Assembly: GCA_046597065.1 (NCBI GenBank)
Contig: JBKJLI010000003.1
Coordinates: 72,219-136,218, forward strand
Length of the DNA stretch: 64,000 nucleotides
Reading direction: 5' to 3'
From: Candidatus Saccharimonadia bacterium
Lineage (GTDB): Bacteria > Patescibacteriota > Saccharimonadia > UBA4664 > SCTI01
The translations under genes and the position numbers were made by a program. Each line of letters starts with the position of its first letter. The stretch's first letter is position 1. Positions 28,864-54,768 of this stretch are shown here, piece after piece. The notes beneath the pieces are model-generated. The model searched no databases. It was not told where the DNA came from and saw only the letters and a list, made by a program, of their open reading frames with translations.

Positions 28864-29006
28864 GTTATTATTTTCTTTTTCGACCCGTCCCCCTAACCCT
28901 TATATAAGGTGGAAGGGGCGGGATTTTTGAACCAAAAATAAGCCCTCAAAATCATCAAGTTCGAATCATTCCCATTCGCATGGGGAGGGGATTCGAACTG
29001 GCCTAG

Positions 29007-30344: not shown

Positions 30345-30373
30345 AGTACCGCCACGGGGTACTAAGTCTAGTC

Positions 30374-31915: not shown

Positions 31916-31927
31916 CTGGTGGACTCC

Positions 31928-33881: not shown

Positions 33882-34629
33882 GGCTCACCTCCAGCAATTT
33901 GGCAGTACCACCAGTCAGCTTCTCCCAGCGGTCAACGACGACTTGGCAATACGCTGGATCAAGCTCAATTGCCAGGCATTTACGTTTGGTTTGCTCACAG
34001 GCTAACAAGGTTGAGCCGGAACCAACGAACGGATCATAAATATAGTCGCCAACTCGGCTGGAATTAAGGACAAGATTTCGGAGCAGGCCAACTGGCTTCA
34101 TGGTCGGATGGAGCTTACTGCGGCTTGGTTTTGGATAGACCAACAGGCTTTTATCTTTGGCTTTGACGAATTCATGCGTTCCAAACCAGCCGTAGGCGAT
34201 AAGTTCGTGTTGGGGTAAGTAGTCCATGCGTCCAACCACAGCATGGGTCTTCACCCAGATCAGTAATTGGGTAAAGCGACAGCCCGCATCCTGCATGCCC
34301 TCCCGCAAAGCGAAGAGCATTTTGTCCGAGTTGAAGATATAGACAGCGTTCTTTGGAGCAAGGTACGGTTTGGCGGTTGCCAGCCAATCTTTGGTGAAGC
34401 ACCGGTATTCATCATCGCTTTGGTAATGGTCGCCGGTAATTTCACCACTCGATCCCAGCTTTTGTGAGAAGCCAGCCTTACTGTCGGTGTAGGCCACACC
34501 ATAGGGCGGGTCGCAGAGGATTAATTTGATCTGATCGTTGCCAACTAGTCGCCTTACCAGTTCTGGGTCTTTGGCATCGCCACAGGCTAAGCGATGGTCG
34601 CCGAGCTGGATGATCTGTTCCGGCTTCAT
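33871..34629 (-). CDS. DNA N6-adenine/N4-cytosine methyltransferase (DPPY family)
   Basis: Motif IV LILCDPPYGV and SAM-binding motif I near the C-terminus (FVGSGST). No adjacent restriction endonuclease. Confidence 0.8.
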   Translation of the reverse strand: MKPEQIIQLGDHRLACGDAKDPELVRRLVGNDQIKLILCDPPYGVAYTDSKAGFSQKLGSSGEITGDHYQSDDEYRCFTKDWLATAKPYLAPKNAVYIFNSDKMLFALREGMQDAGCRFTQLLIWVKTHAVVGRMDYLPQHELIAYGWFGTHEFVKAKDKSLLVYPKPSRSKLHPTMKPVGLLRNLVLNSSRVGDYIYDPFVGSGSTLLACEQTKRKCLAIELDPAYCQVVVDRWEKLTGGTAKLLEVSHVG

Positions 34630-35897
34630 AGCATCACCGCCTTCTGGCCGGTTAGGGCTTCGTATCTAGCAATAATGACATCGCAGAAGATTGGCTCAGC
34701 TTCGGCGAGGAACGCCAGGCGCTTCAGCTGCTCACAGGCCACCATGGTCGAGCCGGAGCCAGCCGTGACGTCGAGTACGATATCGCCTGGCTTAGTACAA
34801 CGCCTGAGGGGCTTTTCGTGCAGGGTCGGCGGCTTCTGAGTCGGGTGCTCGTAATCCTGAGCCGAATCGCGCTTGGCCAGCCAGATATTGAAGAGATCTA
34901 GAATGTCGTCGAGACTACGGTTACCGACTGCCACATCCTTATTCAAGATCTCGGTGAGGTTTTTGGTCTTGGACAGGTATGGTTTGCCGCGAGTGCCATA
35001 AACGCACGGTTCGTACGCTTTATTGAAGGCGATTTGCGGGGTCATGTTGAAATTGTTCTTAATCCAGAGGCAAACCCGCTTCGGAGCCAGACCAATCTCA
35101 ACATATAAACTTTGGAGCATGCCAATATAAGATTCGTCGCAGTAGCAAAAGACATGGCAGTCCGGCTTGGCAACTGCCATGCCGTTCACTAGAAGTGACT
35201 GGAGAAAGGCACTGTAGTCGGGATCGGACTTGTGGTCGTTGGTCGAGCCACCATACTTGCCGTTGGTACTGATGCCTTTGCTGTAATCTAGCGAAATATT
35301 GAACGGTGGGTCGAAGTAGAGCGCACTGACAAGGTCGCTTCCGACTAAGTGGTGGATTACAGCCGGATCGGTGGCGTCGCCGCAGATTAGCCGGTGTGAA
35401 CCGAGCTGGAACAAATCACCTGACTTAGTCTGTGGTGTCTTGATCTCCCGAATGGCTTTATCTACATCGAAGTCATCTTCCTCGGTTGCCAGTGCTTCAT
35501 CCCAAATCGCTGAGAGGTCGCCATCGTCGAAACCGACATCCAGCAGGAGACCCATGTCGAACTCTTTTAATAACTCCAGGTCCCACTCGCCTGTATTGGC
35601 GTTGAGACGAAGATTTAACTCTTTCTCGCGCTCTATATTTGGGATATTCACATAAACTACTGGGACATCGGTATAGCCCAGATCTTGCGCGACCTTCAGT
35701 CGGAAGTGTCCACCGATGACCACATTCTTTCGGTCAGACGCACCGTTCACAATGATGGGGTCGATTAGACCGAAGCGCTTGATGCTAGCAGTTAGATCAC
35801 CCGTCGCCTTATTACTCCAGCGCCTGGGGTTATATGGGGCTGGGTTAAGGTTAGTGGTGGGTACCTGAACTATTTGAATGTCGGTTGCTTGCTTCAT
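34626..35897 (-). CDS. ParB-like nuclease domain fused to a DNA methyltransferase
   Basis: N-terminal ParB/Srx motif (GGHFRLKVAQDLG). C-terminal MTase motifs (ALYFDPPFN; VTAGSGST). Confidence 0.8.
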   Translation of the reverse strand: MKQATDIQIVQVPTTNLNPAPYNPRRWSNKATGDLTASIKRFGLIDPIIVNGASDRKNVVIGGHFRLKVAQDLGYTDVPVVYVNIPNIEREKELNLRLNANTGEWDLELLKEFDMGLLLDVGFDDGDLSAIWDEALATEEDDFDVDKAIREIKTPQTKSGDLFQLGSHRLICGDATDPAVIHHLVGSDLVSALYFDPPFNISLDYSKGISTNGKYGGSTNDHKSDPDYSAFLQSLLVNGMAVAKPDCHVFCYCDESYIGMLQSLYVEIGLAPKRVCLWIKNNFNMTPQIAFNKAYEPCVYGTRGKPYLSKTKNLTEILNKDVAVGNRSLDDILDLFNIWLAKRDSAQDYEHPTQKPPTLHEKPLRRCTKPGDIVLDVTAGSGSTMVACEQLKRLAFLAEAEPIFCDVIIARYEALTGQKAVML

Positions 35898-35970
35898 AAC
35901 CTGATTTTCGGTTATGAGAAGGGAGAATAGTACCTGAATTGTTCAAGATAAGTTCTGGAAAAGTTCCGTA

Positions 35971-36621
35971 CTAGAAACTTCTAACGTATTTCAGCTGATA
36001 GCCTTCGCCCCAGCGACGAGTAACTTCTATCTCCAGATCGTCTTTCCTGAGCGCCCGTTTAAGTTCAGACATCAGATTAGGAATGCCCTTTACTGGGTCA
36101 AAGTTGCCGAGCTTCGCTTTGATCGTTTCATTACTCACATAATGCTCTGGAAACTCAAGCAGCATGACTAGTAGCTTGCCATGCTTAGAGGTGTGATAAA
36201 GATTCTGAAGGCGCCGTCCTTGATATTCAAACCGGCCGTCGATCAGGACTACGAACCCAAAATTAGGAGGTGCTGGGCGCTCAATCACTGTCGCCGCTGT
36301 GGGTGCTGCTGCAACCAGTGCTCCTTGAATCGGGAATATGTTAAGAAGTGGTTGAATCTCAATGATCAGGGGTGAGATCTTGGGAGTGATCTCCGATACC
36401 ACGGCCATTGTTCGACGAAGGTTATCGAAAATGCCGTTGGGAATTCGGATTGCCTCCACCATTCGCCTGTGCGTTTCGGCAATTTGCTCTTGCATCTCAG
36501 CCATTTGACGCACGAACCCCAAGTTGATTTGGGGCATAACAAGTGTACCCAAGTCGTGGCCGATGTTATCAAGGTCTAGAATCATTTCTTCTCCAGAACA
36601 TCTTTTACCAGAGAGAACCAT
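35971..36621 (-). CDS. Hypothetical protein with a C-terminal OmpR/PhoB-type winged-helix DNA-binding domain (no receiver domain)
   Basis: C-terminus ...ALRKDDLEIEVTRRWGEGYQLKY resembles the Trans_reg_C recognition wing. The N-terminal 120 aa are unassigned. Confidence 0.4.
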   Translation of the reverse strand: MVLSGKRCSGEEMILDLDNIGHDLGTLVMPQINLGFVRQMAEMQEQIAETHRRMVEAIRIPNGIFDNLRRTMAVVSEITPKISPLIIEIQPLLNIFPIQGALVAAAPTAATVIERPAPPNFGFVVLIDGRFEYQGRRLQNLYHTSKHGKLLVMLLEFPEHYVSNETIKAKLGNFDPVKGIPNLMSELKRALRKDDLEIEVTRRWGEGYQLKYVRSF

Positions 36622-37502
36622 TTCGTCGTATGGATCAGTCGATCGTTCACCAACTTCTTGGATAGCAGTTCCTGTTTCGTCAGCTTCGAAAGATCCTCCC
36701 AGCTAGTGGCATCTAGTACGTAGCTAGCGTTACCATAGCGGATACTCTCAAGTACCGTGATGCCTTTTTCTGGGAAAACGTAGGCAACGTAGCCGGTAAA
36801 ACCACCCGTACCGTAGGCAATAGTTGTTGGCTCAAACCCGATGATCCGGTCTTGCCGCAGGATTTCCACCGGGCGAATACGCTTTGATTTAGATAGGATG
36901 TCTTCCAGCTCTTTGGTGAGCTCGTCGATGGTCACCTTTTTACCCGGCGGCAGTAGGTGCCAGTTCAGCCGTCGAATTTCTACGGGCTCAAAGGCTTCGT
37001 CGTAAACCTCAACATGACCAAAGACTTCCAGGAAGATGTTGATAGCTGTGAGCAGTGTCTCTGGGTTGGCGGGATCGTACACCAATCGGTCAGCAGGCGT
37101 TATGAACTGATGCCCTTGCTTCTTTACGACCGTGAGTTCTATGCCCATTGCTGCCACTACCTCACGCGGGTAGCGCTGGTAAGGCACATCGACTAAGGAC
37201 GTTACGGTTACCGTCTCTTTGCCGCGCCACTCTTGGTGTGTCCATTCCTGGGTTCGGTAACGGGTTTCTTTGGGCTGATCACGTTGAATAATTTCTCGAC
37301 CCCAGGCGTTGAATCTGGTGACCGAGCCAAGGGGTTTTGGTAGTATCGTATCTCCCGGTGCTGGACTTGGACCAAAGCCAGCATTTTGAGCCGCTCGCGC
37401 ATTTGAAGCCACTTCCACCGCTAGCAAGACCTCCTTCCCCTCTAGCGAGGTGGGAAGGTGGGCTGAGAGTGAACGGATTCGCTTATTGTCAATGCTAAGC
37501 AT
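36582..37502 (-). CDS. Hypothetical protein (306 aa)
   Basis: Long ORF between the HNH and wHTH genes on the same strand. No recognisable motif. Confidence 0.4.
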   Translation of the reverse strand: MLSIDNKRIRSLSAHLPTSLEGKEVLLAVEVASNARAAQNAGFGPSPAPGDTILPKPLGSVTRFNAWGREIIQRDQPKETRYRTQEWTHQEWRGKETVTVTSLVDVPYQRYPREVVAAMGIELTVVKKQGHQFITPADRLVYDPANPETLLTAINIFLEVFGHVEVYDEAFEPVEIRRLNWHLLPPGKKVTIDELTKELEDILSKSKRIRPVEILRQDRIIGFEPTTIAYGTGGFTGYVAYVFPEKGITVLESIRYGNASYVLDATSWEDLSKLTKQELLSKKLVNDRLIHTTKWFSLVKDVLEKK

Positions 37503-37503
37503 G

Positions 37504-37872
37504 CTATCGGCTCGCTACGACTGCCGCATTTGGCAGTACGCCCACAGCGTCGCTTTTGCGCCGGTTGTTTTGCCACTGCAATGCCTGCAGGTTGCTAAGG
37601 TTATCGCTCCCACCCTTGGCGGCTGGGTAGACATGATCAATCTCCCAGCCGTTGCCCATCGGGGTCGTGTTACCATAACTAGCCCACTTGATCAGTGCGC
37701 CGTACATGTCCATACGCATATCACTTGGGTCGTATCCCGCCACAGCCTGGGCTTTAACCCAAACTGCGGCTCTTGTTTGTATAGAGAAATCATTTCCGGA
37801 TCGGTCGGTGCCGTGTCGTCGGGTTTGCATTCTTGCACCCTCCCTTAACTTAATTGTCAGTCCCGACCTCAC
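37504..37872 (-). CDS. HNH endonuclease
   Basis: GNGWEIDHVYPAAKGGSDNLSNLQALQWQNNRRK: a HNH core (DH...N...N) in a Cys-less variant. Confidence 0.65.
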   Translation of the reverse strand: MRSGLTIKLREGARMQTRRHGTDRSGNDFSIQTRAAVWVKAQAVAGYDPSDMRMDMYGALIKWASYGNTTPMGNGWEIDHVYPAAKGGSDNLSNLQALQWQNNRRKSDAVGVLPNAAVVASR

Positions 37873-37993
37873 CTTGCCGCGGCTGTTACTTAAGATTTTA
37901 AATCGCTCAAGCTGGACTTGTCAACAGTCATTGATATTATTGAATAGTGTTGAGCTATTGAAATAACATAAGCGGTTTGATAGGATTGGACTA

Positions 37994-38659
37994 ATGCATC
38001 CCACACAACAGAAGCTACTTAAACTAGCTGGTGAACGCGACCTCGGTAAGATGAAGTTGCTTGAGATGGGTCGTCTCGTGGGCGTCGATCACCCCCAAGT
38101 TGTTAAATACCACCTTGCCCAACTCCAGAAGAGAGGGCTAATTAACTTGGATCGTGCCGGTGGCACCGTAAAACGCATAGAGCATCAGCTCTTAGGCGGC
38201 TCGGATCTAGTGGCTATCCCGATTTATGGTTCAGCAAATGCTGGTCCTCAAACTCTTTACGCCGATGATCGCCTCGAGGGATACCTCAAGGTCTCCAGCG
38301 GCGTGCTCGGCACCAGGCGCAATCTAGAATCGCTACTTGCGCTCCATGTCGTTGGTGATTCCATGGATCGAGCTCATGTTGGCCCTGATCGTGAACCAAT
38401 TGATGACGGCGACTATGTAATCGTGGACAGGAAGCAGGTTGATGCCAATGATGGCGACTATGTGGTCTCGATCATTGATGGTATGGCCAATATCAAGAAA
38501 TTTCGGCAACAGCCCGATAACATCTATCTGATATCTGAATCCAATCGAGATTTGCCACCAATCGTTCTCCACAAAGATGATAGCCTCGATCTGGTTCTAG
38601 CTGGAAAAGTGGTTCAGGTTATAAAGCCGCCCAAGATATCTAAGCCTACAGCCCCTTAA
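37994..38659 (+). CDS. LexA/CI-like repressor (N-terminal HTH plus S24 peptidase autocleavage domain)
   Basis: S24 Ser motif VVGDSM and Lys motif ANIKKF. N-terminal wHTH. Confidence 0.75.
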   Translation: MHPTQQKLLKLAGERDLGKMKLLEMGRLVGVDHPQVVKYHLAQLQKRGLINLDRAGGTVKRIEHQLLGGSDLVAIPIYGSANAGPQTLYADDRLEGYLKVSSGVLGTRRNLESLLALHVVGDSMDRAHVGPDREPIDDGDYVIVDRKQVDANDGDYVVSIIDGMANIKKFRQQPDNIYLISESNRDLPPIVLHKDDSLDLVLAGKVVQVIKPPKISKPTAP

Positions 38660-38873
38660 AGAAGTCCTCGACCTTAACGCCCATCCCCTTGGCCAGTCGA
38701 TAAATTGTCGTAACGGTTGGTCGGCGAATCCCTGTCTCAATGTTTGCAATGGCGACTCTATCTAGCCCGCTTTTGTCTGCAAGCTGTTCTTGTGTCATGC
38801 CTTGCTCGCGGCGCAATTGAGCGAGGCGTTTGGCCACTTTCTCCAAAAATGCCTTTTCGGCTTTTGATTCCAT
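38646..38873 (-). CDS. XRE-family HTH regulator (Cro-like)
   Basis: LAQLRREQGMTQEQLADKSGLDRVAIANIETGIRRPTVTTIYRLAKGMGV. Convergent and overlapping with the CI-like gene. Confidence 0.8.
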   Translation of the reverse strand: MESKAEKAFLEKVAKRLAQLRREQGMTQEQLADKSGLDRVAIANIETGIRRPTVTTIYRLAKGMGVKVEDFFKGL

Positions 38874-38978
38874 AGCTTAAGCATAGGAAGAATAGCCTTG
38901 TCAAGACATAATCATTTGATTACAATTCAAGCTTATGCTATAACTTGTGTAAACATTTGATTAAGGAGATTTACACCT

Positions 38979-39545
38979 ATGAGCGACCAGGCGAAAAAGA
39001 AAAATTGGTTTGCACGGCACAAGATCATGTCCGTAATACTTGGACTAATAGTAATCGGGGTCATTACCTCGGCTGCCGGTGGCAACAAGGGCAGTACCAA
39101 CACTCCATCTGGTAGTACCAAACAGGCCTCTAGTGGAGCTAAGACCGTCGGCATTGGTCAGGCGGCTCAAGATGGTAAGTTTGAATTCACGGTCAACAGC
39201 TTCAAATGTGGCGACACCACAGTTGGAACAAACCAATATCTGACCAAGACTGCTCAAGGTGAGTACTGCCTCATGAACCTCACGGTTAAGAACATCGGCA
39301 ACCAGGCTCAACTGTTCGATGCTTCGAATGAATATGTCTACGACAGCAGTAACAATAAACTATCTGCCGACAGTACCGCTTCAACCTACGCTAACCCTGA
39401 TGGAAGCACGTTCCTCAACCAGATCAACCCAGGCAACTCCGTCACTGGTACTGTCGCCTTCGATGTAGCAAAAGGTGCAACCATTGCGACTGCTGAACTT
39501 CATGATTCCGCATTCTCCAGCGGTGTCAAAGTTACGCTTAAGTAG
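38979..39545 (+). CDS. DUF4352-like membrane-anchored protein
   Basis: N-terminal TM anchor, Ser/Thr/Gly linker, then a beta-rich domain (GKFEFTVNSFKCGD...GEYCLMNLTVKNIGN). Confidence 0.5.
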   Translation: MSDQAKKKNWFARHKIMSVILGLIVIGVITSAAGGNKGSTNTPSGSTKQASSGAKTVGIGQAAQDGKFEFTVNSFKCGDTTVGTNQYLTKTAQGEYCLMNLTVKNIGNQAQLFDASNEYVYDSSNNKLSADSTASTYANPDGSTFLNQINPGNSVTGTVAFDVAKGATIATAELHDSAFSSGVKVTLK

Positions 39546-39727
39546 CCACGGCAGATCCCCCTTATGCTTTCTATCCATATCGTTTTAGCTTAAAATACTC
39601 GGGGCGGAACTCAGGTGCCGCCTTTGGTTTATTACGTTCGTTGACATATCCAGGCCGGATTATTGCTTTAAGGGTGATTAGCGGTAATCCGGTCTGGAAC
39701 AGACCCTTACAAAAGGAGGGATGCCAA

Positions 39728-40636
39728 GTGCATCTTGCCACTACACTGGCTGGCGTCGAGCTTGAGCATCCGCTCATGAATGCTGCTGGCACCTGCAAGA
39801 CCCTGGAGGACGTCGAGAAGCTCGCTAGGTCAAGCATTTCGGCCATTGTGGTCGGTTCCATCACCCTCGCATCCCGGATGGGGAACGAGGGGAATGTTTT
39901 CTGGCCTGGTCCGATCTACTCGCAGAACTCTCTCGGGATGCCCAATCGTGGGCGTGACTACTACCAGGACACTCTCCCGCGAATGGTCGAGGTAGCTCAT
40001 GGTGCTGGCAAGGCTCTGATCCTCAACGTCGCTGGCTTTAGCCATATCGAATATGGCGAGCTGGCAGCGCTGGCGCACGAAGCCGGGGTTGACATCATCG
40101 AGCTCAACCTCGGCTGTCCGAATGTGTGGGACGACGGTCAGCAGAAAAAGATCGCCTCGTTCGACCCATTCGGTATCGCAGCCATCATGGCTGAGGTCGA
40201 GCGCAAGGTTCCTGACGATCGACCGGTTGGTGTGAAGCTCTCGCCCTATTCCGATCCCGGGATGCTGGCGGAAGTTGCGGATACCATCAAGGATCTCCCG
40301 ATCCGGTACGTCGCCACCTGCAACACTTTCCCGAACTCGCTGGTTCTCGACGAGAATGGCAAGTCGGTGATCGACGTTGGACTGGCTGGGCTGAGTGGCC
40401 CTGCCATGAAGCCCGTCGGTCTCGGTCAGGTTAAGCAGTTGCGACAGCTTCTGCCGGACTCGGTCGAGCTCGTGGGCGTCGGCGGTATCACAAAAGGCCG
40501 CGACGTCTGGGAGTACCAGCAGGTCGGAGCTTCAGCCGTCCAGGTGGCTACGGCCTACTGGAACAGCAACGAAAACCCCGGCGTCTTCGGGGACATCCTG
40601 TCGGATTACATCGACCAGTTCCCCGAGGAGGGCTGA
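39728..40636 (+). CDS. pyrD: Dihydroorotate dehydrogenase (class 1-like), GC-rich
   Basis: GTG start 7 nt after AAAGGAGGG. ELNLGCPN motif, a GVGGI phosphate-binding loop, and an N-terminal NAAG. About 62% GC. Confidence 0.8.
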   Translation: MHLATTLAGVELEHPLMNAAGTCKTLEDVEKLARSSISAIVVGSITLASRMGNEGNVFWPGPIYSQNSLGMPNRGRDYYQDTLPRMVEVAHGAGKALILNVAGFSHIEYGELAALAHEAGVDIIELNLGCPNVWDDGQQKKIASFDPFGIAAIMAEVERKVPDDRPVGVKLSPYSDPGMLAEVADTIKDLPIRYVATCNTFPNSLVLDENGKSVIDVGLAGLSGPAMKPVGLGQVKQLRQLLPDSVELVGVGGITKGRDVWEYQQVGASAVQVATAYWNSNENPGVFGDILSDYIDQFPEEG

Positions 40637-40637
40637 C

Positions 40638-41381
40638 ATGAGCACCATCACCGATCCCATCGAGCGGATAATCTGGAGTGCGGACGTGGCTGACGAGGAA
40701 GCCTTGATGGCTGCACTCGACCGAATGCCAGATCTCCGAGTCATCAAGATCGACCGCCTGTTCGTGACCGAAGTCGGTCTGGGCGTCATCGATCGGCTGG
40801 CCGAGCGTGGGCTGCTGGTCTTCGACGACGCCAAGATCATCGAGATTCCCTCGAAGGTTGTCGGCATCGCCAAGAAGCACCTGGTACACCGACCGTTCAT
40901 GCTCAACTGCATGGCGGGTGCTCAGTCCAGTGGCCTCCTGACGCACGAAGACCCGGAGAAGGTCGACGGGCTCAAGCGGTTCGCCGATGTCTGCCTCGAA
41001 GCTGGCACCAAGCCCTGTGCAGTCACGGTGCTGACCAGCAAGACAGCAGACGTCGTCGGTAGCGAGTTCAACGGCCGAGACAGCATGGAGCAAGTGCTCT
41101 ACTACGTCGAGGCGTTGCTCGAGTGCGGCTTCACTGACGTGGTCTGCTCCCCAAAGGAGCTTCCCGCAATTCGGGCTGAGAGTCGCTTTGACGGCCTCGA
41201 CCTGAACACACCGGGAATTCGCCCGGCGGGTTCTGACGCTGGAGACCAAGCCAGGGCCGACACTCCCGAAGGGGCACTGGCGGCTGGAGCAACTCGGCTC
41301 GTCATCGGCCGACCCATCACGACCGGTGATCCGGCCGAGAACCTCAAGAACATCGTCGCCAGCATCACCGCTGAGGCCTGA
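40638..41381 (+). CDS. pyrF: Orotidine 5'-phosphate decarboxylase
   Basis: DDAKIIEIP (DxKxxDIP) catalytic motif and the C-terminal LVIGRPI. GC-rich. Confidence 0.75.
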   Translation: MSTITDPIERIIWSADVADEEALMAALDRMPDLRVIKIDRLFVTEVGLGVIDRLAERGLLVFDDAKIIEIPSKVVGIAKKHLVHRPFMLNCMAGAQSSGLLTHEDPEKVDGLKRFADVCLEAGTKPCAVTVLTSKTADVVGSEFNGRDSMEQVLYYVEALLECGFTDVVCSPKELPAIRAESRFDGLDLNTPGIRPAGSDAGDQARADTPEGALAAGATRLVIGRPITTGDPAENLKNIVASITAEA

Positions 41382-41395
41382 CCAAGGAGATCAAG

Positions 41396-42034
41396 TTGGA
41401 CGTCCTGAAAGAACTCGACCAAGCAGGTGCTGTTCTGCTCGATCAGCACTTCGTCTACAAGAGCAAGAAGCATGGGTCTGGCTACATCAACATGGACCCG
41501 CTTTTTCCCGACGTGGGGCTGGTCTCGTCGCTGTGTGCGTTGCTGGTACGACCGTTCGAGGGCGACTTCGACACGGTCGCTAGCCCGGCAACCGGTGGCG
41601 TGGTGCTTGCGTTCGCCAGTGCCATGCAGACGCCTGGTACACGGCCGGCCGCGGTTTGGGCAGACAAGGACGGGGATGAGTTCCGCTTCGAGTGAGCAGG
41701 CTTCACCGACCACCTCAAGGGCAAGCGTGTCCTGGTGGTCGAGGATCTGCTCACGACAGGCGGTTCGGTGCTCAAGGTCTGCCGAGAAGCGGAGAAGCAC
41801 GGTGCCGAGATCATCGGTGTCAGCGTCATCTGCAACCGAGGTGGCGTTACCGCCGAACAGCTCGGCGTCCCGCGACTGGAAGCACTCGCCAGCGTCAGCT
41901 TTGCGGCTGTCGATCCCGGCGAGTGTGAGCTGTGCAAGAACAACGTTCCCATCGTCGAGGACATCGGTCATGGCGAAAGCTACAAGGCCGAGCACCCCGA
42001 CTACGAGGGTGGCTACATCAAGCTGCTCTCCTGA
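41396..42034 (+). pseudogene. pyrE: Orotate phosphoribosyltransferase-like gene interrupted by a single in-frame TGA at 41693-41695
   Basis: The ORFs 41396-41695 and 41735-42034 are in the same frame and separated only by a TGA (...DEFRFE*AGFTDHLKGKRVLVVEDLLTTGGS...). The PRTase motif VLVVEDLLTTGGS lies downstream of the stop. Confidence 0.6.
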
Positions 42035-42323
42035 ACACCTAGCAGTAGGTGGGCAGCCAAGTTCTGGAGCTAATCCAGGGCTTGGCGCTCAACCCAAGAT
42101 TTTAAGCCATTAAAGTTTTAGGCTGAGTCAATAAGTAGAGCTTGACAGCGTAAGCGTTTAGTAGTATAATACCCAAGTATTTTGACAATATGCTATTACT
42201 CCCCTTGAGAGCGGCGCTCTGCAACCAAGTGTTTGGTATCAGTGTGCCGCTCTCAGCCCCCGCTGAGACCACGATGCGCATACCGCGCAAGCGTGGACGA
42301 ACACCGGCACAGGAGGATTTGTC

Positions 42324-43136
42324 ATGGGAACCAAGGCAACCCGCGAGGAGCTCGGTGACCTCGGCGTCGTGTACGCCAGGTTGTTCGAGTTCGTCAAGAA
42401 CGGCAAGAGGCCAGCAGGGCTCGTCATTGCAGGGATGCAGCGACTGGCCGATGGTCAGTTCCCGGAGAACACGCGGTTCGACCGCTACAACCACCTGCTG
42501 CTGTCCCTGGACGACCAGTTGGAGCGCCTACGGCGTTACAACACGAAGTACTGGGACAGCCGCCTGACCGATGAGCAGCTCGCTGCCGTCGACACGTCCG
42601 GTGATCTCACCCAGCGGGTCGACGACCTCACAGCCTTTCACGTCCAGTTCGACTCCCTCGAGGAGACGGTCGAGATGTGGTGGCGCGTGTACGTCGGCGA
42701 GCAGCCCAAGCAGTGGCGCTGGGACGAGCTCAAGCTCGACTCGGAGCACCTGCGGCTTCTCACTTCCAACGTCCGCCAGTACGAACCCGGTATCCATCGG
42801 ATCCGGATCGACCTGGTGGCTCACTGGGAGCCCGAGGACGGGCGCACGCTCGAGGAAGTCCGTGAGGGCGCCAAGGGCACCAGCGAGATTCTCGCTCAGC
42901 TCGAGGTCCTCTCGGCCTACGGTCTGCACTCGGAGCTTTTCCGGGAGCAGGACGGCGAGAACCTGCCGTATTCGGACATGCCCGGTACCGACGTGTCGGT
43001 TCCCGGCCGCTCCGGGCCGTGCGCTCTGTGCGTGGGCTGGTCCCCGTTCGCCCTCGAGGCCGGGCTGAACGCCGGCTGGGTCAGCCGCCGCAGCCACAAG
43101 TGGGCGGCGCCGGTGCTCAGGGAGTTGCAGAGCTAG
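42324..43136 (+). CDS. DGR target protein; its C-terminal 41 codons are the variable repeat
   Basis: 270 aa, GC-rich. The C-terminus (...CALCVGWSPFALEAGLNAGWVSRRSHKWAAPVLRELQS) lies within VR. No signal peptide. Confidence 0.75.
   Translation: MGTKATREELGDLGVVYARLFEFVKNGKRPAGLVIAGMQRLADGQFPENTRFDRYNHLLLSLDDQLERLRRYNTKYWDSRLTDEQLAAVDTSGDLTQRVDDLTAFHVQFDSLEETVEMWWRVYVGEQPKQWRWDELKLDSEHLRLLTSNVRQYEPGIHRIRIDLVAHWEPEDGRTLEEVREGAKGTSEILAQLEVLSAYGLHSELFREQDGENLPYSDMPGTDVSVPGRSGPCALCVGWSPFALEAGLNAGWVSRRSHKWAAPVLRELQS
42999..43123 (+). repeat. DGR variable repeat (VR), 125 bp
   Basis: Identical to TR (43501-43625) except at 21 positions, all of which are adenines in TR (A to G, C or T in VR). Followed by GC-rich hairpins (CTAGGACTTCGGTCCCTAG). 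Confidence 0.9.
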
Positions 43137-43500
43137 GACTTCGGTCCCTAGGGGCTTGGAGGGCCTTGGACTTCGTTCCTTGGCCCTCCGCCCCGCAGGG
43201 GCGCAAATTCAATTTTTTACGCAAGTAGATACATTGGAGAAGCGCCCCTTCTTCATGCCCAAAATTTGCTATAATCATATCTGGAAAGTAGGCTAATGAA
43301 TCCGACTTTACGGAGTCTGGGTCGCCGAAATCTCTCGTAGTCGCAGAAACTACCAGAGTTTTGGTCACTAGGGTGGCTGAAAGTGTGTAGGCGATTAACC
43401 GAGCACTCCGTGCTCCTTGCTTGAGACAGTTAAGTCTCGCATTAAATACAGGGTTTGGATACGTCCGGGCCCAGTGGATCACAAGGCAAGTAGCGCAATT

Positions 43501-43625
43501 GTTCCCGGCAACTCCAAGCCGTACGCTCTGTACGTGAACTGGAACCCGTTCAACCTCAAGGCCAAGCTGAACGCCAACTGGGTCAGCAACCGCAACAACA
43601 AGTGGGCGGCGCCGGTGCTCAGGGA
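43501..43625 (+). repeat. DGR template repeat (TR), 125 bp, rich in AAC codons
   Basis: Same frame as VR. Codons AAC/AAG sit at every diversified position. The 85-aa ORF 43417-43674 in the track is this repeat, not a gene. Confidence 0.9.
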
Positions 43626-43668
43626 CTGCTCGAATAACAGGGAGGGTGAGATACCACTCCCTGTTTTG

Positions 43669-44058
43669 TTATAGCGATTTTAGCCAGCCACCCAACATAC
43701 GGCCAATTTCATGGAGTTGAGACTCAAGAGCCAGATAGGTCTTGTTGTCGATGCATTTGCAGTCTTTGCTGAGTCGAACCATTAGCCGCAGTAGATCGAG
43801 TTTAGTTGAGGCTACGCTTAACCGCTCCTTTTTGGTTTCCGGTTTAGCAGTACTTGCCGCAGTAACAACCGCTTCCATCAGATCAAGCAGTTCGGTCTGC
43901 ATGGCTGAGCCTAACGAGTAGCGTTGGGATTTTGGAAACTTTAATAGCAATTCATGGAGAGCTTTATACAGCTGATACAGCGAATGGACAATAGGGATAT
44001 CAATCAAACCCCCACTCAACTTAGCTTGGACTTTACTACTGGCATTGGAACTAGTCAT
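43669..44058 (-). CDS. avd: DGR accessory variability determinant (Avd-like four-helix-bundle protein)
   Basis: 129 aa. ...LYKALHELLLKFPKSQRYSLGSAMQTELLDLMEAVVTAA matches the Avd/23S-IVS four-helix-bundle family core. AAGGAGG Shine-Dalgarno. Confidence 0.7.
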   Translation of the reverse strand: MTSSNASSKVQAKLSGGLIDIPIVHSLYQLYKALHELLLKFPKSQRYSLGSAMQTELLDLMEAVVTAASTAKPETKKERLSVASTKLDLLRLMVRLSKDCKCIDNKTYLALESQLHEIGRMLGGWLKSL

Positions 44059-45045
44059 GAAACCTCCTTATTATCGTCATTTGATTACATTTGTTCTATT
44101 ACAAGCCTTTTTCAGGCATGGAGCAAGTTTAGCCGGGGGAAGCGCTCAAAACTGGATGTCTTATGTTATGAGCGATCGCTAGAGGAGAACATCTTCGAAC
44201 TGCAGGAGCAGCTGGTAGGAGGTAAATTTAAACATGGCCCATATGTGCCATTTACCATTTGCGATCCAAAAACGCGCCGAATCCACAAGGCTACCGTCCA
44301 AGACCGCTTAGTTCATCAGGCACTGGTTAGTGCCATTGAGCCACTATTCGAACGCCAGTTTATTTATGACAGCTATTCCTGCCGCAAGAATAAGGGTACC
44401 CACGCAGCAGTAAGACGATTGCGAACCTTCTTACGACAAGCTAGTCATAACGACACCCAGACGGTGTACGCCCTCAAATGTGATGTGAAGCAGTTCTTTG
44501 CCTCGGTCGATCACGAGATTCTGGTGAATTTGCTGAAGCAGAAGGTTGATGATCCAGATACACTCAAGCTATTACTTTTGATAATTGATAGCCTATCCAC
44601 TTGCCCTGGCAAAGGCATCCCACTTGGTAACCTCACCAGCCAGCTTTTTGCTAATATTTACTTGCATGAGTTCGATTGGTTTGTGAAGAATCGAATACGT
44701 GAGAAGCATTATCTGCGCTATTGCGATGATTTTATTATTCTCAGCACTAACCGGCAGCATTTACTGGAATTAATTGAGCCAATTACTCGGTTTCTGAGCG
44801 ATCGGCTAGCGCTCACAGTCCACCCAAATAAGATCACAATTCGCAGCTGGGGTCAGGGTATCGACTTCTTGGGCTATGTTCTCAAGCCCCAATGTATCGT
44901 TCTGCGCCACAAGACGAAGCTACGAACGCTCAAACGGGTGGATAGCAACAATCTGACGTCTTACGTTGGGTTGTGCTCTCACGCCGACGCATATGAGCTG
45001 AGCCAGCTTATTACAATAAAGGCATTAACCAAGCAGGAGGATTAG
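44026..45045 (+). CDS. DGR reverse transcriptase
   Basis: Aligns with BPP-1 bRT from the N-terminal LFQAWSKFSRGKR. RT motifs include IPLGNLTSQLFANIYL (the DGR-specific [IL]GxxxSQ) and YCDDFIIL (YxDD). The start is uncertain: TTG at 44026 is proposed, the ORF-track ATG at 43954 would overlap avd. Confidence 0.85.
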   Translation: MDFTTGIGTSHETSLLSSFDYICSITSLFQAWSKFSRGKRSKLDVLCYERSLEENIFELQEQLVGGKFKHGPYVPFTICDPKTRRIHKATVQDRLVHQALVSAIEPLFERQFIYDSYSCRKNKGTHAAVRRLRTFLRQASHNDTQTVYALKCDVKQFFASVDHEILVNLLKQKVDDPDTLKLLLLIIDSLSTCPGKGIPLGNLTSQLFANIYLHEFDWFVKNRIREKHYLRYCDDFIILSTNRQHLLELIEPITRFLSDRLALTVHPNKITIRSWGQGIDFLGYVLKPQCIVLRHKTKLRTLKRVDSNNLTSYVGLCSHADAYELSQLITIKALTKQED

Positions 45046-45047
45046 AT

Positions 45048-46109
45048 ATGGATCGTAAAAGATATGAGGATCTCTATGACGAAATTACAGTTGAGGGCTG
45101 TCGCTCTGGCGAACGAATAGTTAATGGCACTTTCAGCGAGATGGAACCGAAAGTGCCACCGTCAGAAATTGAACAACGTCGTCCGGGTTGGTACTTGTTC
45201 TATAGCCAGCTCTATTTTGGCCTCGTTGAGTCCCGGGCAGCTGCGCGAGCAGTAAAGCGTGATCAGACTATTAGCGAGTGGGTGGCTCGGGACGAGGAGA
45301 AAGACCGTGTCCTAGCTAACGCACACTTTGAGGGTGGTACGTACTGCCGAAGCTGCGGTAAAGACATGCGGGTTATTAGCAAGGACTATATGCGCCGCGA
45401 GGGTCGCAAGGAAGATGACATCCTGCTGATGTTTGAGTGCGATAATTGCAATAAGCGACTGGCCTTATGGCAAGACGGCACCGAGTGGGAGGGTGCCAAG
45501 ACCTTATGCGAGAAATGCGGTGAATCAATGGATCATACCGGCAAAACTGATAACAAGGTTGTCACAACTACCTACAAATGCCCCAAATGCGGACATAGTT
45601 ACCAAGACAGCTTTGAGCTTGGTGGAAGTAAAGAAGAAGAGCCACCCGATCCTAACTACGAGCTGGATAAAAAGCGGTTTGTCTTCGATAGCGACATGAT
45701 GTTTAAGTACGAGCAGAAACGCCGTCATCTCGAGCGGCTAATGAAGCTCGAGGCTACCGTCGCTGATCAAGCTGTGCATGCTGATATCTATGAGGCCATC
45801 AAAGATATCAAGAAGCTCAAAATTGCCCAGCTGACTGAGATATTGAAGCCAGGATTAGAAAAAGCTGGCTACACTGAGTTTATGCTAGGTCAGCCGGAAC
45901 TAGGTCGCGAGGTGGCCGTGGGATTTAGCTGCTTAGATGCCAAGGCCGAACGAGAAGAGTACAACAGCAAGAAGGATCTGCAAAAGCTGATCTCTAAAAC
46001 TCTGGATGATACAAACTGGCGGTTAATGAGTGAGGGTGTGAGTTACCGGGTTGGCTACTTGACCGGCAGCTCCGTGCTTACGAAAGCGAAGATGAACTTC
46101 GGAAGCTAA
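45048..46109 (+). CDS. Multi-zinc-ribbon protein translationally coupled to the DGR RT (4 CxxC pairs)
   Basis: ATG 2 nt after the RT stop. CRSCG, CDNCN, CEKCG, CPKCG. Acidic, coiled-coil C-terminal half. No known family recognised. Confidence 0.5.
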   Translation: MDRKRYEDLYDEITVEGCRSGERIVNGTFSEMEPKVPPSEIEQRRPGWYLFYSQLYFGLVESRAAARAVKRDQTISEWVARDEEKDRVLANAHFEGGTYCRSCGKDMRVISKDYMRREGRKEDDILLMFECDNCNKRLALWQDGTEWEGAKTLCEKCGESMDHTGKTDNKVVTTTYKCPKCGHSYQDSFELGGSKEEEPPDPNYELDKKRFVFDSDMMFKYEQKRRHLERLMKLEATVADQAVHADIYEAIKDIKKLKIAQLTEILKPGLEKAGYTEFMLGQPELGREVAVGFSCLDAKAEREEYNSKKDLQKLISKTLDDTNWRLMSEGVSYRVGYLTGSSVLTKAKMNFGS

Positions 46110-46213
46110 TCGAGCAAAAAGCCAAGCATGGCACATTACCGCCACCAACGGCAAAGCCAGTTGAGGCGCTGCCGGATCATCCACCGACTACGCTTAGTCC
46201 AAGGGAGCGCAAT

Positions 46214-46492
46214 ATGCGCGAATCAGCCTTGGTTTATTTTCATAAAATGACGCTCGACTCAGTACCAGCCGAGATTACCCTAAAGAGTGGTATGAAGAAG
46301 TCGACGAGCATTCCTTTTCTGCGAATGGAGATGCATCCGCTACTCCGAGTGATCATACCAATGCGCGATAATGACGATTCGGTACCCGAGTTTGCTAGAA
46401 CGTTTGATTTTAAGTCGGGCGGTGACAAAGATATCCCGCAGATTAAAAAAGATAGCCTAGGGCGAGAAATAAGACGTCTCGATAAGGAGTAG
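46214..46492 (+). CDS. Hypothetical protein
   Basis: 92-aa ORF. No motif. Confidence 0.3.
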   Translation: MRESALVYFHKMTLDSVPAEITLKSGMKKSTSIPFLRMEMHPLLRVIIPMRDNDDSVPEFARTFDFKSGGDKDIPQIKKDSLGREIRRLDKE

Positions 46493-46494
46493 TT

Positions 46495-46719
46495 TTAGCT
46501 TCGTTTTTCAATCCGACCGTCTTGAAGATGGCTAGGAGCTTTTTCGAACAGCCTGATTAACCCCTGAGCTGCCCGCATTGCCACTTCATCATTTGGAAAT
46601 TCTAGGCCACGCATTTCCTTGGTAATACGCTTAAACTCTGCGAGATCCTGCTTACTAACTTGTGTCATGATAGTGTTCCCCAAGGCACCATTAACTACTC
46701 TCCCTATCTGATAATGCAA
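46495..46719 (-). CDS. Hypothetical protein
   Basis: 74-aa ORF. No motif. Confidence 0.3.
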   Translation of the reverse strand: MHYQIGRVVNGALGNTIMTQVSKQDLAEFKRITKEMRGLEFPNDEVAMRAAQGLIRLFEKAPSHLQDGRIEKRS

Positions 46720-53752: not shown

Positions 53753-54292
53753 GTGCGACGATCTACACTGACACTCGTTCTCGTGCTTTTTGCGTTGAGC
53801 GTTTCGCTGGCCTATGGTCAGTCGTCAACGGGCCGTGCACGGCCCTCGACAGTGCACGCCGTTGGTCTGGCCGCGAGGCTAAGCCCAACCGAACCCAGTC
53901 TTAAGACGCAGATGCGTCGCGAGGCTGAACAAAATCTGGCCCGAAAGTTGCGTCGCGTGCGACGCCACCATCTGGCCTACATCAAAAAGGCCGAGCGGGC
54001 TCTAGCGGCTCGTTTGGCAAAGCAAGCGTCAACTCCGGTTGTCGCGACCGCCACATCCGTTGGTGGTAACTCTACTTTGGCGGCCATAGCGGCTTGCGAG
54101 AGTGGGGGTAACCCCAGGGCGGTCAGTGCCAGCGGCAGCTACCGCGGCCTATTCCAGTTTGACTATGGAACATGGGCCTCGGTTGGCGGCCAAGGCGATC
54201 CGGCGGCAGCGTCGGCCAGCGAGCAGTATGCTCGTGCAGCCATGTTGTATGCCAGATCAGGGTCGGCACCTTGGCCGGTTTGTGGTCGGTGA
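53753..54292 (+). CDS. Resuscitation-promoting-factor-like (Rpf) transglycosylase-domain protein, GC-rich
   Basis: Signal peptide. Rpf domain AIAACESGGNPRAVSASGSYRGLFQFDYGTWASVGG. Confidence 0.7.
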   Translation: MRRSTLTLVLVLFALSVSLAYGQSSTGRARPSTVHAVGLAARLSPTEPSLKTQMRREAEQNLARKLRRVRRHHLAYIKKAERALAARLAKQASTPVVATATSVGGNSTLAAIAACESGGNPRAVSASGSYRGLFQFDYGTWASVGGQGDPAAASASEQYARAAMLYARSGSAPWPVCGR

Positions 54293-54768
54293 TGACAATG
54301 ATCATCAACCGCACGCTAGTCACGGTGGCGGTACTATTGGCCACCCTTGTGTCGCTTGCGACACCGGTGTTGGTCCAGGCCACGACCCAAACGTCTGGAG
54401 CTCGCTCCGAACGCGTTGTTTCAGGCCACAAGGCACCCCGCTCGTACTGGATGGTTCATCAGCACGGCAAGCTGGTGGTCCATCCCAAGCTGCTGGCGAA
54501 ACATCTCAGCAACTTGAAGTTCGGCCGTAAACATTGGCCCAACTTGCGCAGGCTGTGGAGCAATGAGTCGGGATGGAACCCACTCGCTCGTAACCGCAGC
54601 ACCGGTGCTTGCGGAATTCCCCAAGCCAACCCCTGCAGCAAGATTCCCAAACCTGGCTCGATTAAGAGCCAGATCATTTGGGGTCTCAACTACATCAAGG
54701 CTCGCTACGGCAACCCGACGGCCGCGCTGTTCTTCTGGAACTCGCGCCGGCCTTACGGTTGGTACTAG
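54292..54768 (+). CDS. Secreted lysozyme-like/SLT-domain protein
   Basis: Start at the internal Met (MTMIINRTLVTVAVLLATLVSLA signal peptide). SLT-like catalytic region WSNESGWNPLARNRSTGACGIPQ. Confidence 0.55.
   Translation: MTMIINRTLVTVAVLLATLVSLATPVLVQATTQTSGARSERVVSGHKAPRSYWMVHQHGKLVVHPKLLAKHLSNLKFGRKHWPNLRRLWSNESGWNPLARNRSTGACGIPQANPCSKIPKPGSIKSQIIWGLNYIKARYGNPTAALFFWNSRRPYGWY

Follow-up and report, generated by a model that had tools for sequence, protein, structure and literature searches.

Chromosomal diversity-generating retroelements (DGRs) include that of Treponema denticola, whose C-type-lectin-fold target, the lipoprotein TvpA, carries an export signal. DGRs of the CPR were reportedly described by Paul et al. 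in 2017. The textbook element is that of Bordetella phage BPP-1 (mtd-avd-TR-brt), where target, avd, template region (TR), Sp and reverse transcriptase (RT) follow each other on one strand, and where the ~140-nt Sp RNA, which envelops the RT (bRT) and supplies the primer strand, is downstream of TR. The site just after the Bordetella TR holds an Avd-binding stem-loop (10.1101/2023.10.23.563531), and for many DGRs, CPR ones among them, Handa et al. predicted such stem-loops just 3' of TR. DGR clade 2 of Roux et al. (2021; PMC8144416) is made up of cell-encoded DGRs restricted to Patescibacteria.

The locus described here lies in a 64-kb stretch of a Saccharibacteria (CPR) chromosome, called the window below. 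It is very probably a functional DGR of the CPR/Patescibacteria clade, with a mechanism that we infer to be based on a leader RNA upstream of TR. Its features are collected in Table 1.

Table 1. Features of the DGR locus, in window coordinates
Feature	Position	Strand	Basis or remark
Target promoter, sigma-70-type, TTGACA-17-TATAAT (predicted)	42142-42170	+	promoter scan
DGR target gene, 270 aa	42324-43136	+	N-terminal helical region and C-type-lectin-like domain
Variable region (VR)	42999-43123	+	125 nt, 21 mismatches to TR
GC-rich invariant VR 3' end, IMH-like	43101-43123	+	identical in TR
Hairpin 1, CTAGGAC-TTCG-GTCCCTAG	43133-43151	+	directly 3' of VR; overlaps target stop codon
Hairpin 2, core GGAGGGCC..GGA-CTTCG-TCC..GGCCCTCC	43151-43194	+	DNA fold, RNAalifold consensus
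GC hairpin and T-run, GCCCCGCAGGGGCGCAAATTCAATTTTTT	43190-43218	+	kept in related loci
Extended -10 element TGCTATAAT of leader-TR transcript (predicted)	43267-43275	+	leader alignment
Structured leader RNA, ~220 nt	43282-43500	+	directly upstream of TR
Leader hairpin P1	~43292-43325	+	
Leader hairpin P3	~43359-43383	+	
Leader block CGAGCACTCC (= CGAGCACUCC)	43400-43409	+	pairs with TR 3' end and first downstream nt
Leader hairpin P5	~43423-43438	+	
Conserved single-stranded leader block	43439-43451	+	
Leader hairpin P6	~43451-43472	+	
Template region (TR)	43501-43625	+	fixed-offset re-alignment, L013 comparison
Leader-block partner GGACTGCTCG (= GGACUGCUCG)	43623-43632	+	last 3 nt of TR and 7 nt downstream
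Stem-loop and U-run directly after TR	43638-43672	+	terminator scan, RNA folds
avd accessory gene, 129 aa	43669-44058	-	NCBIfam and Pfam matches
DGR reverse transcriptase	43984-45045	+	bRT match, RVT_1; start uncertain, ATG 43984 or TTG 44023

The repeat pair and its flanks

When VR and TR were re-aligned with the offset fixed at 502 nt, they showed 104 identities and 21 mismatches, and their likeness ends sharply at both repeat edges. The first-pass annotation had taken the differences to be confined to adenines and TR to be built on AAC and AAG codons, and both readings hold. A TR adenine underlies each of the 21 mismatches (15 A>G, 5 A>C and 1 A>T); 21 of the 31 TR adenines are altered in VR and no non-A position is changed. 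Read in the VR frame, TR contains nine AAC and four AAG codons, along with two TAC, one AGC and one AGG. The four AAG codons are mutable to TAG stops, and about 2e17 peptide variants could in theory be drawn from TR. By arithmetic from the alignment counts, all 21 differences would fall on A with P of about 1e-13 under random placement in a repeat that is 25% A. This figure speaks against a chance similarity or an assembly artefact, a reading that is hardly credible: its sole weak foothold is the origin of the window in a metagenome-type assembly, where near-repeats can be mis-joined, but the VR and TR copies stand in separate, conserved contexts and independent assemblies repeat the same arrangement.

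The common 3' end of VR and TR, the 23-mer TGGGCGGCGCCGGTGCTCAGGGA, has exactly two copies in the window versus none expected from shuffles, and the GC-rich invariant VR end is kept across related loci. Beyond it VR runs on as GT... and TR as CTGCTCG; the boundary nucleotide, G in VR versus C in TR, is seen again in 10 of 19 loci. GC hairpins had also been noted 3' of VR; they are present, and conserved across loci with compensatory changes. Four of the seven pairs of hairpin 1 are changed on both sides (10 distinct sequences), as are six of the 11 core pairs of hairpin 2, for which 87.8% of cells are paired overall, versus at most 67.5% with the partners slid. Hairpin 2 is a candidate cruciform for target recognition. 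The GC hairpin and T-run behind it are probably the target-gene terminator, which is missing from the terminator scan because the T-run is spaced away from the stem.

The same cassette occurs in five of the 16 related genome loci (L006, L007, L010, L013 and L016). VR/TR mismatches fall only at TR adenines in L006, L010 and L013, and do so for 18 of 20 in L007 and 20 of 21 in L016. Remote VRs served by one TR behave alike, with 16 of 16 mismatches at A for the L013 TR and the VR of L001, and 18 of 18 for L010 and L011. Compared with L013, a 92% identical relative, the window retains 124 of 125 TR positions, 365 of 378 in the spacer and 105 of 125 in VR; the 20 VR differences comprise 19 at TR-A sites and one that tracks the lone TR change. 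Since TR is kept while VR differs almost wholly at TR adenines, and at one position copies the TR change, homing must have taken place after the lineages split. This sequence comparison shows, then, that VR was rewritten from its own TR after divergence from this close relative, in agreement with the earlier description of an active-appearing cassette. We consider it improbable that the element is a fossil, its A-specific differences old and its homing at an end. Some decay is visible nearby, where a neighbour gene (45048-46492) has a frameshift and pyrE an in-frame TGA, through regional decay or sequencing error, and in relatives, with an in-frame stop in the L016 RT and an apparent VR/TR deletion in L008; however, RT, Avd, leader, TR, IMH-like end and hairpins are all intact in the window, and against L013 a nearly unchanged TR accompanies 20 VR differences, of which the non-A one copies a lineage-specific TR change.

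Proteins and genomic setting

The predicted target promoter matches all 12 consensus positions, on consensus alone. Residues 1-90 of the target protein are helical, and the last ~42 residues of its C-type-lectin-like domain are variable and encoded by VR. A C-type-lectin fold had been supposed for this C-terminus, and a confident structure model bears it out (C-type-lectin/FGE-like). Structural similarity to known folds is remote only, and a Pfam search with the 270-aa sequence returned no family, with no FGE-sulfatase or DUF1566 match. GC islands are a character of target genes across this clade; this character was not found in the papers searched.

The first-pass annotation had further assigned the target to a phage or to the cell surface, and neither assignment is supported. 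The cell-surface label is unsupported because inspection by eye found no obvious signal peptide or membrane segment. For the phage label, the cassette would have to be a tropism-switching DGR with a prophage receptor-binding protein as target, like Mtd in BPP-1, which is very improbable. The setting lends this some colour: the cassette is at the far end of an integrative element adjoining tRNA-Ser and syntenic in L006, the island genes include a serine recombinase, two terminase-like genes, DNA methylases and an S24 repressor, and relatives of the RT are present in IMG/VR contigs. Against it, the ORF list for 28.8-46.5 kb has no capsid, portal or tail genes, and the cassette is not recognisable as a phage structural module; the search for relatives of the target family found none among the 2.9 million viral contigs of IMG/VR and no viral structural match in BFVD; the target, at only 270 aa and with a helical N-terminus, is unlike tail fibres; and the same genomes have paralogous targets at other sites. 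The 16 related genome loci that carry this target family are all from Saccharibacteria.

An Avd-like gene on the opposite strand, and an RT with DGR motifs aligning to bRT, had both been recognised by eye, and profile and structure searches agree. Avd matches NCBIfam NF033474 DivGenRetAVD at 85.3 bits (cut-off 80) and Pfam bAvd at 6e-18. Among 80 metagenome loci with the closest RTs, the avd(-)/RT(+) architecture is found wherever avd was detected, and in each of the 38 leader-positive metagenome loci a minus-strand avd directly precedes RT. The RT matches Pfam RVT_1, and its best PDB match is Bordetella bRT (8ub7, E 1.9e-44); IPLGNLTSQ is present, and the motifs IPLGNLTSQLFAN and YCDD align to those of bRT. 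A group II intron or retron identity was rejected: RTs of these kinds match at E of about 1e-20 to 4e-20, far more weakly than bRT, and scores are far under the curated cut-offs (142.7 versus 300 bits for group II, 58.2 versus 235 bits for retron St85). An Rfam scan of the whole window at gathering thresholds returned only tRNAs, with no intron ribozyme or retron msr/msd family.

The RT coding region overlaps the 5' end of avd head to head. Its true start is not the first ATG of the ORF, and bRT similarity runs from ORF residue 43. The L013 ORF start corresponds by offset to 43984, and L010 has a stop just upstream. No good pair of promoter and start codon was found for the RT by promoter scan and locus comparison.

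The leader RNA and its pairing with TR

The leader is kept across loci with RT identity of only 55-65%. A search with nhmmer found it in 38 sources, counting the window, and each time on the RT strand. A CM search added eight further loci and gave a single hit in the window. At least 38 of the 61 related metagenome loci with enough upstream sequence have the leader; it went undetected by nhmmer and CM in 23 of the 61, where it may be diverged or absent. TR comes directly after the leader in 31 of the 38 leader-positive sources (window included), its VR carrying A-biased mismatches. The fold is supported by covariation, with 35 of 39 pairs showing changes on both sides and 84.8% of cells paired versus 63% in shuffles (score 0.63 versus 0.23). 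The leader matches no family in Rfam 15, and neither this RNA nor its pairing with the TR 3' end was found in the papers searched. A TGnTATAAT-like box at the 5' edge of the leader alignment is kept in most of 27 loci, and transcription would start behind it.

Pairing between the leader block and the TR 3' end is predicted at a mean of -14.9 kcal/mol within a locus versus -9.8 across loci, and none of 10,000 permutations was as good; the same long-range helix is recovered in the single-sequence MFE fold of the whole RNA. The leader pentamer ACTNC covaries with the VR/TR boundary pentamer, and in 16 of 19 loci the block pairs more strongly with the flank of TR than with that of VR. G or U follows the leader strand of the duplex, with no conserved A like A56 of Bordetella Sp.

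By terminator scan and RNA folds, the stem-loop after TR is a terminator common to the leader-TR RNA and the convergent avd gene, whose stop codon is only 43 nt from TR. Stems of different sequence stand at the same place in L006, L007, L008 and L010, and the terminator is missing in L016 and L031. An Sp-like element downstream of TR could be carried on read-through RNA antisense to avd. Such RNA could double as RT mRNA, because no good RT promoter/start codon pair was found.

In the mechanism we propose, the extended -10 promoter would produce a ~390-nt non-coding RNA composed of leader, TR, a 12-nt linker and the terminator stem-loop. The leader block CGAGCACUCC would fold back on the TR 3' end and flank GGACUGCUCG, and this fold-back would bring the template 3' end into the RT-Avd complex, the part played in Bordetella by the downstream Sp RNA. 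Synthesis of cDNA would begin at the template 3' end, with misincorporation opposite A, and the cDNA would replace VR, the recipient being marked by the GC-rich 3' end of VR that does not vary, by the boundary nucleotide (G in VR, C in TR) and by both conserved hairpins 3' of VR. The outcome would be up to about 1e17 variants of the target protein's putative ligand-binding face. Promoter and RNA ends are predictions from sequence, as is the priming role given here to the leader.

It is possible, though we doubt it, that the DGR is real and the leader a regulatory 5' UTR, a stability element or an unrelated sRNA, the Sp-equivalent being downstream of TR on an avd-antisense read-through RNA, with the order TR-Sp-RT as in Bordetella. 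For the RT itself, neither a convincing promoter nor a convincing start codon was found, and its coding region starts within the opposite-strand avd, so that a long leader-TR-antisense-avd-RT transcript is plausible. The two loci lacking the post-TR hairpin, and the stem-loops predicted by Handa et al., also fit such an arrangement. However, every leader adjoins a TR, the leader block of each locus covaries with the 3' end of that locus's TR, a stem-loop and U-run come right after TR in most loci, and the antisense-avd sequence is under coding constraint. We prefer the leader-based mechanism, in which the RNA that positions RT and Avd would be upstream of TR, unlike its downstream position in Bordetella.

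Comparison with known systems

The locus shares with the BPP-1 element a bRT-like RT with (I/L)GxxxSQ and YxDD motifs, a pentamer-type Avd, adenine-specific transfer from an AAC-rich TR to VR, and a VR that forms the C-terminus of a C-type-lectin-fold protein and has a GC-rich invariant 3' end followed by hairpins. Also alike are a short RNA duplex involving the TR 3' end and a stem-loop right after TR, at the place of the Bordetella Avd-binding stem-loop. The gene order differs, being here target, leader-TR, avd on the minus strand, and RT. Unlike in Bordetella, the large structured RNA and the strand that pairs with the TR 3' end are upstream of TR, and no conserved priming adenosine was identified. 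The host is a CPR chromosomal island and no lytic or temperate phage, and the target is no tail fibre. Nor does the target resemble TvpA of the T. denticola chromosomal DGR in its export, having no signal peptide by eye. Group II intron RT/maturases and retron RTs share the RVT_1 palm and fingers domain and appear as secondary sequence hits, but their loci differ from this one, which has a TR/VR pair and Avd.

The CPR/Patescibacteria DGRs agree with it in having a Patescibacteria host and multiple and remote targets per TR, and the cassette itself shows no departure from the CPR-restricted clade. A layout with a ~220-nt leader upstream of TR is undescribed in the textbook element of Bordetella. 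As a cassette, the locus is nothing unusual within a known class: it is a genuine DGR, very probably of the clade already known to be confined to the CPR.

The retroelement cassette and its relatives

VR and TR aligned where the first-pass annotation had placed them, without gaps at a fixed offset of 502 nt, with 104 identities and 21 mismatches, and its claim that the two repeats differ only at template adenines held on re-alignment (21/21 mismatches at a TR A). The changes comprise 15 A>G, 5 A>C and 1 A>T, altering 21 of the 31 TR adenines; by arithmetic from the alignment counts, with TR being 25% A, the probability that 21 randomly placed differences would all fall on A is about 1e-13. Similarity stops sharply at either side, and the GC-rich 3′ 23-mer common to VR and TR has two copies in the window and none in shuffled sequence. 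Read in the VR frame, TR has 9 AAC, 4 AAG, 2 TAC, 1 AGC and 1 AGG codons, for a theoretical peptide diversity of about 2e17 variants. The classic AAC-only TR design avoids stop-prone AAG codons; here A-mutagenesis can reach a TAG stop from 4 of the 17 mutable TR codons (the AAG codons).

Features of the diversity-generating retroelement (DGR) and its surroundings, in window positions
Feature	Position	Strand	Sequence or remark
Island	28774-46500		about 17.7 kb
tRNA-Ser	28774-28863		island start
pyrD-pyrF-pyrE block	39641-42034		GC 0.59-0.62; between DUF4352 gene and target
Target gene	42324-43136	+	
VR (variable region)	42999-43123		
Hairpins 3′ of VR	43133-43151 and 43151-43194		follow VR within 10 nt
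Third GC hairpin and T-run	43190-43218		probably terminator of target gene
Extended -10 box	43267-43275		TGCTATAAT; conserved, precedes leader
Leader	43282-43500		structured RNA 5′ of TR
Hairpin P1	43302-43320		in leader
Hairpin P3	43359-43383		in leader
Near-invariant leader block	43400-43409		CGAGCACTCC
TR (template region)	43501-43625		
TR AAG codons	43516-43518, 43558-43560, 43564-43566, 43600-43602		
Partner of leader block	43623-43632		GGACTGCTCG; last 3 nt of TR and next 7 nt
Stem-loop and U-run	43638-43672		
avd	43669-44058	-	129-aa ORF

VR and TR are identical up to CAGGGA, after which VR continues with GT and TR with CTGCTCG. The 3′ side of VR carries what is looked for in a DGR recipient, a GC-rich segment of the IMH (homing mark) type and hairpins with compensatory changes. 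In a set of 10 distinct sequences the two flanking hairpins have 87.8% of their cells paired, a level that falls to 67.5% or less once the partners are slid, and 10 of the 22 pairs have changed on both sides. This matches the IMH and cruciform arrangement that Guo et al. are said to have described for Bordetella in 2011, and by analogy the VR 3′ end and its two hairpins may act in homing.

The identification of the opposite-strand gene as avd was confirmed by the NCBIfam equivalog NF033474 (DivGenRetAVD; 85.3 bits, cut-off 80); the product also matches Pfam PF22296 bAvd (65.7 bits, cut-off 40), and only chance matches among PDB sequences. The reverse transcriptase (RT) ORF matches Pfam RVT_1 and is of the DGR type, as had been proposed: its placement in the DGR clade is by motif 4, (I/V/L)GxxxSQ, and YxDD, IPLGNLTSQLFAN and RYCDDF aligning with IPIGSLTSQLFAN and RYMDDI of the Bordetella phage BPP-1 enzyme bRT, and by closest solved relative, which is the bRT structure 8ub7 (E 1.9e-44; the best group II intron RT reaches about 4e-20 and retron-type RTs 6e-20). 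A group II intron RT or maturase was ruled out by a TIGR04416 score of 142.7 bits (cut-off 300) and by the gathering-threshold Rfam scan of the window, which yielded tRNAs and no intron ribozyme; a retron was ruled out by a St85 model score of 58.2 bits (cut-off 235) and by Rfam scans that contained no retron msr/msd family.

Similarity to bRT starts at residue 43 of the listed RT ORF, the RT ORF of the related genome locus L013 begins at an ATG equivalent to window position 43984 (by our own offset from the window-L013 alignment), and in L010 a stop codon lies just upstream of the conserved RT N-terminus; this leaves 43984 or 44023 as the RT start. RT and avd lie head-to-head on opposite strands, and their coding regions share at least about 36 nt in the window (43984-44058) and roughly 15-75 nt in L006, L007, L010, L013 and L016, so the promoter of each gene must sit within the other. 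The L016 RT (4642-5643) has an in-frame stop where the N-terminal AW.KF motif should have its conserved W, a sign of decay or else an error in the metagenome-assembled genome (MAG).

Loci of the target family among genomes are all from Saccharibacteria MAGs (16/16). The order target, TR, avd(-), RT(+) recurs in L006, L007, L010, L013 and L016, and mismatches fall at TR adenines in 10/10 and 11/11 cases in L006, 18/18 in L010, 19/19 in L013, 18/20 in L007 and 20/21 in L016. A single TR can also supply targets at a distance: for the one in L013 there is a matching VR in L001, on a different contig of its MAG (16/16 mismatches at A), and the L010 TR matches the VR of L011, 46 kb apart on the same contig (18/18 at A). 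Between the window and L013 the RTs are 92% identical, and identity is 124/125 for TR, 365/378 for the VR-TR spacer and 105/125 for VR. VR differs at 20 sites, 19 of them TR-A positions and the 20th (43054) a copy of the lone lineage-specific TR substitution (43556); each VR has therefore been rewritten from its own TR after the window and L013 lineages split. The sequences thus hold comparative evidence of recent DGR activity in the form of VR turnover. What the locus carries is a genuine and recently active DGR, from a known clade of CPR bacteria (the Patescibacteria group), and the cassette itself is of a known kind; thousands of DGRs are known and they are abundant in CPR bacteria, so that the cassette alone is ordinary.

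In L008 (7800-8813), which is without leader, a full-length target ORF ends in a TR-like sequence that is AAC-rich and unmutated and has a TR-type 3′ flank; this looks like deletion by VR/TR recombination or assembly collapse, not the ancestral state. Origin of the window's VR-TR spacer as a decayed target copy was rejected, the spacer having ordinary GC and its similarity reaching no further than about 24 nt upstream of TR.

Target genes and the surrounding island

For the target protein (270 aa), sequence searches of Pfam, NCBIfam and PDB gave no match. Its 80 homologues, each of about 270 aa and, where named, from Candidatus Saccharimonadales, align as a conserved body followed by a hypervariable C-terminus of some 40 residues, set on a constant scaffold (VPG..AL...W....R...L.A.WV..R...WAAPVLRE). 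VR lies at the end of the target ORF, where DGRs have a variability-tolerant fold (usually a C-type lectin), and the C-type-lectin fold guessed for this C-terminus finds moderate support; Foldseek of the target against PDB and BFVD gave non-significant matches only. The proposal of a phage or cell-surface protein did not find support, since the target family has no relative in IMG/VR and no match among viral structure models; nor did inspection by eye reveal a signal peptide or membrane segment.

We examined base composition, and found the target gene to have a GC of 0.66 and a GC3 of 0.87. GC3 of the other window genes is 0.39-0.62, the exceptions being the pyr block (0.70-0.75) and a doubtful overlapping ORF at 54172-54768 (0.73). 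The rise is seen in 16/16 genome loci of the target family and is confined to the ORF. Among 54 targets, comprising those in L001-L016 and in 38 further loci and including unrelated target families, GC of the gene body, VR excluded, exceeds that of the remaining locus in every case. The mean excess is +0.13 in leader-positive loci and +0.10 in other loci; in phage contigs the excess is only +0.01 to +0.08. We found no mention of GC-rich DGR targets in the literature searched.

Several causes of this enrichment were weighed. Mutagenesis of A to N over the whole gene was dismissed as a sufficient cause, since depletion affects T3 (0.09) as well as A3 (0.04), and high expression is unlikely because GC3 of GroEL is 0.51. 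A single acquired high-GC block at 39.6-43.2 kb that included the target was rejected because pyrDFE is absent from L001, L002 and L006, where the target comes immediately after the DUF4352 gene, and because the target is itself a GC island in every locus; the pyr block is accordingly an insertion specific to the window lineage. Target genes may be held as GC islands by some force tied to being a DGR target. The regularity could reveal a selective or mutational side-effect of hypermutation-target status, and GC enrichment could help find DGR targets.

A homologue search with pyrF identified no donor for the block, the named matches being from Saccharibacteria and other phyla. An in-frame TGA (41693-41695) interrupts its orotate-phosphoribosyltransferase-like ORF (pyrE, 41396-42034), which could reflect a pseudogene, sequencing error or recoding.

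The DGR cassette forms the far end of the island, whose tRNA-Ser is followed in order by genes for a serine recombinase, two terminase-like proteins, a DNA methylase, a ParB-methylase, an S24 repressor and the DUF4352 protein, and then by the target and DGR. The terminase-like genes match only the Terminase_6C nuclease domain, and no capsid or tail genes were seen in the island. The same gene order is found in L006 (1-12661), beside another tRNA-Ser. Our search for an att repeat of tRNA-Ser(gga) bounding the island returned other tRNA-Ser genes only. Downstream of RT, a Zn-ribbon gene (45048-46492) that lies beside the DGR in the closest relative only has suffered a 1-nt deletion (about 46066) relative to the intact 481-aa L013 ORF, splitting it into 45048-46109 and 46214-46492.

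A structured leader upstream of the template

The stretch of about 220 nt from the extended -10 box to TR is strikingly conserved between loci with RT identities of only 55-65%. For a wider sample, 80 metagenome loci were gathered via RT alignment (RT identity 42-67%). Iterated nhmmer found the leader in 38 sources including the window, always on the RT strand, and of the 61 metagenome loci that extend far enough upstream, 38 are leader-positive; from leader end to RT match the metagenome loci measure 497-738 nt. In 31 of the 38 sources that nhmmer detected, the leader runs directly into a TR, and another part of the locus holds a VR with A-biased mismatches to that TR. A covariance model of the leader 5′ half added 8 loci; it has a single match in the 64-kb window and none in phage contigs.

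RNAalifold predicted two hairpins in the leader, with compensatory changes in 22 of 25 pairs. A five-hairpin model is paired in 84.8% of cells, a share that shuffling lowers to 63% and sliding to 51% or less; 35 of its 39 pairs change on both sides, with a covariation score of 0.63 versus 0.23. At the level of comparative sequence analysis, the existence and structure of a leader scaffold are thus shown. Rfam 15 returned tRNAs only for the whole window at gathering thresholds, and two chance-level matches (E 2.5 and 9.8) for 43100-43720 with permissive filters; no description of such a leader element was found in the searchable literature. The covariance model is a signature by which TRs in CPR genomes can be found. 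The P1 and P3 loops share a UACGGAU-like motif in most loci, which suggests two equivalent binding sites, e.g., for Avd or RT.

The near-invariant block of the leader is complementary to the TR 3′ end and its flank, with one C-C mismatch in the window. Among the further related loci the two strands have changed together: AACAAG with CUUGUU (L035), UGAUGGG with CCCAUCA (L029), GAGGAGA with UCUCCUC (L085), GAGAUAGAA with UUCUAUCUC (L090) and GGAGACUUC with GAAGUCUCC (L093). Mean duplex energy is -14.9 kcal/mol for own-locus pairs compared with -9.8 for cross-locus pairs, and none of 10,000 permutations was as good. An unconstrained minimum-free-energy fold of the predicted 390-nt RNA contains the long-range helix, the hairpins and the terminator together.

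This block pairs more strongly with the TR flank than with the VR flank in 16/19 loci. The leader pentamer ACUNC has its exact complement (GNAGU) at the VR end in 15/19 loci and at the TR end in only 6/19; the boundary nucleotide is C in TR where it is G in VR in 10/19 loci, and the variants ACUCC, ACUGC and ACUUC each occur with a matching boundary sequence. The complementarity to the VR boundary and the C of TR suggest that the primer part of the RNA may recognise the recipient site as well and set the direction of homing. From these patterns we infer a role for the leader in priming and in discrimination between donor and recipient.

Comparison with the Bordetella element

To our knowledge, the Bordetella phage element is the only DGR whose RNA is understood, its functional RNA lying downstream of the template, and the mechanism has been proposed as general. 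There, TR is followed by an Sp RNA of about 140 nt that wraps around bRT and rests on Avd; the stem-loop immediately 3′ of TR (Sp 3-33) binds Avd, other Sp elements contact RT, and Sp 47-56 pairs with TR 117-129 as the template:primer duplex, priming being from Sp A56 (10.1101/2023.10.23.563531). A Bordetella-type layout, with Sp and primer strand between TR and RT, is not what we found. Only 43 nt separate TR from the stop codon of the convergent avd (12 nt, then the stem-loop and U-run), and avd is on the minus strand in 38/38 leader-positive metagenome loci. No clear promoter and start codon belong to the RT itself, and read-through transcription antisense to avd may therefore occur.

The RT-binding RNA and primer strand that Bordetella has downstream of TR contrast with the arrangement here, in which the pairing strand and the bulk of the conserved structure are upstream; from the sequences we infer that the DGR RNA is permuted relative to Bordetella. 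In this permuted RNA, a structured scaffold of about 220 nt 5′ of TR would replace the Sp RNA 3′ of TR, would bind RT-Avd, and would supply the strand for pairing with the TR 3′ end at the start of cDNA synthesis. The post-TR stem-loop may correspond to the Avd-binding element of Bordetella; this hairpin is absent in L016 and L031, a point that, together with possible read-through antisense to avd, counts against the permuted reading.

What appears, on comparative grounds, to go beyond the known kind is the conserved RNA scaffold upstream of TR, together with the covarying contact that it makes with the TR 3′ end. The reading in its entirety, that a large Patescibacteria clade has a permuted DGR RNA with a primer segment that may read the recipient, and that its targets are kept as GC islands by a DGR-linked force, is tentative, and we would put it at slightly less than an even chance. 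It offers concrete nucleotides to mutate in probing priming, template/target distinction and homing direction where DGRs are commonest. In this widespread CPR clade, the comparative evidence indicates a layout unlike that of Bordetella.
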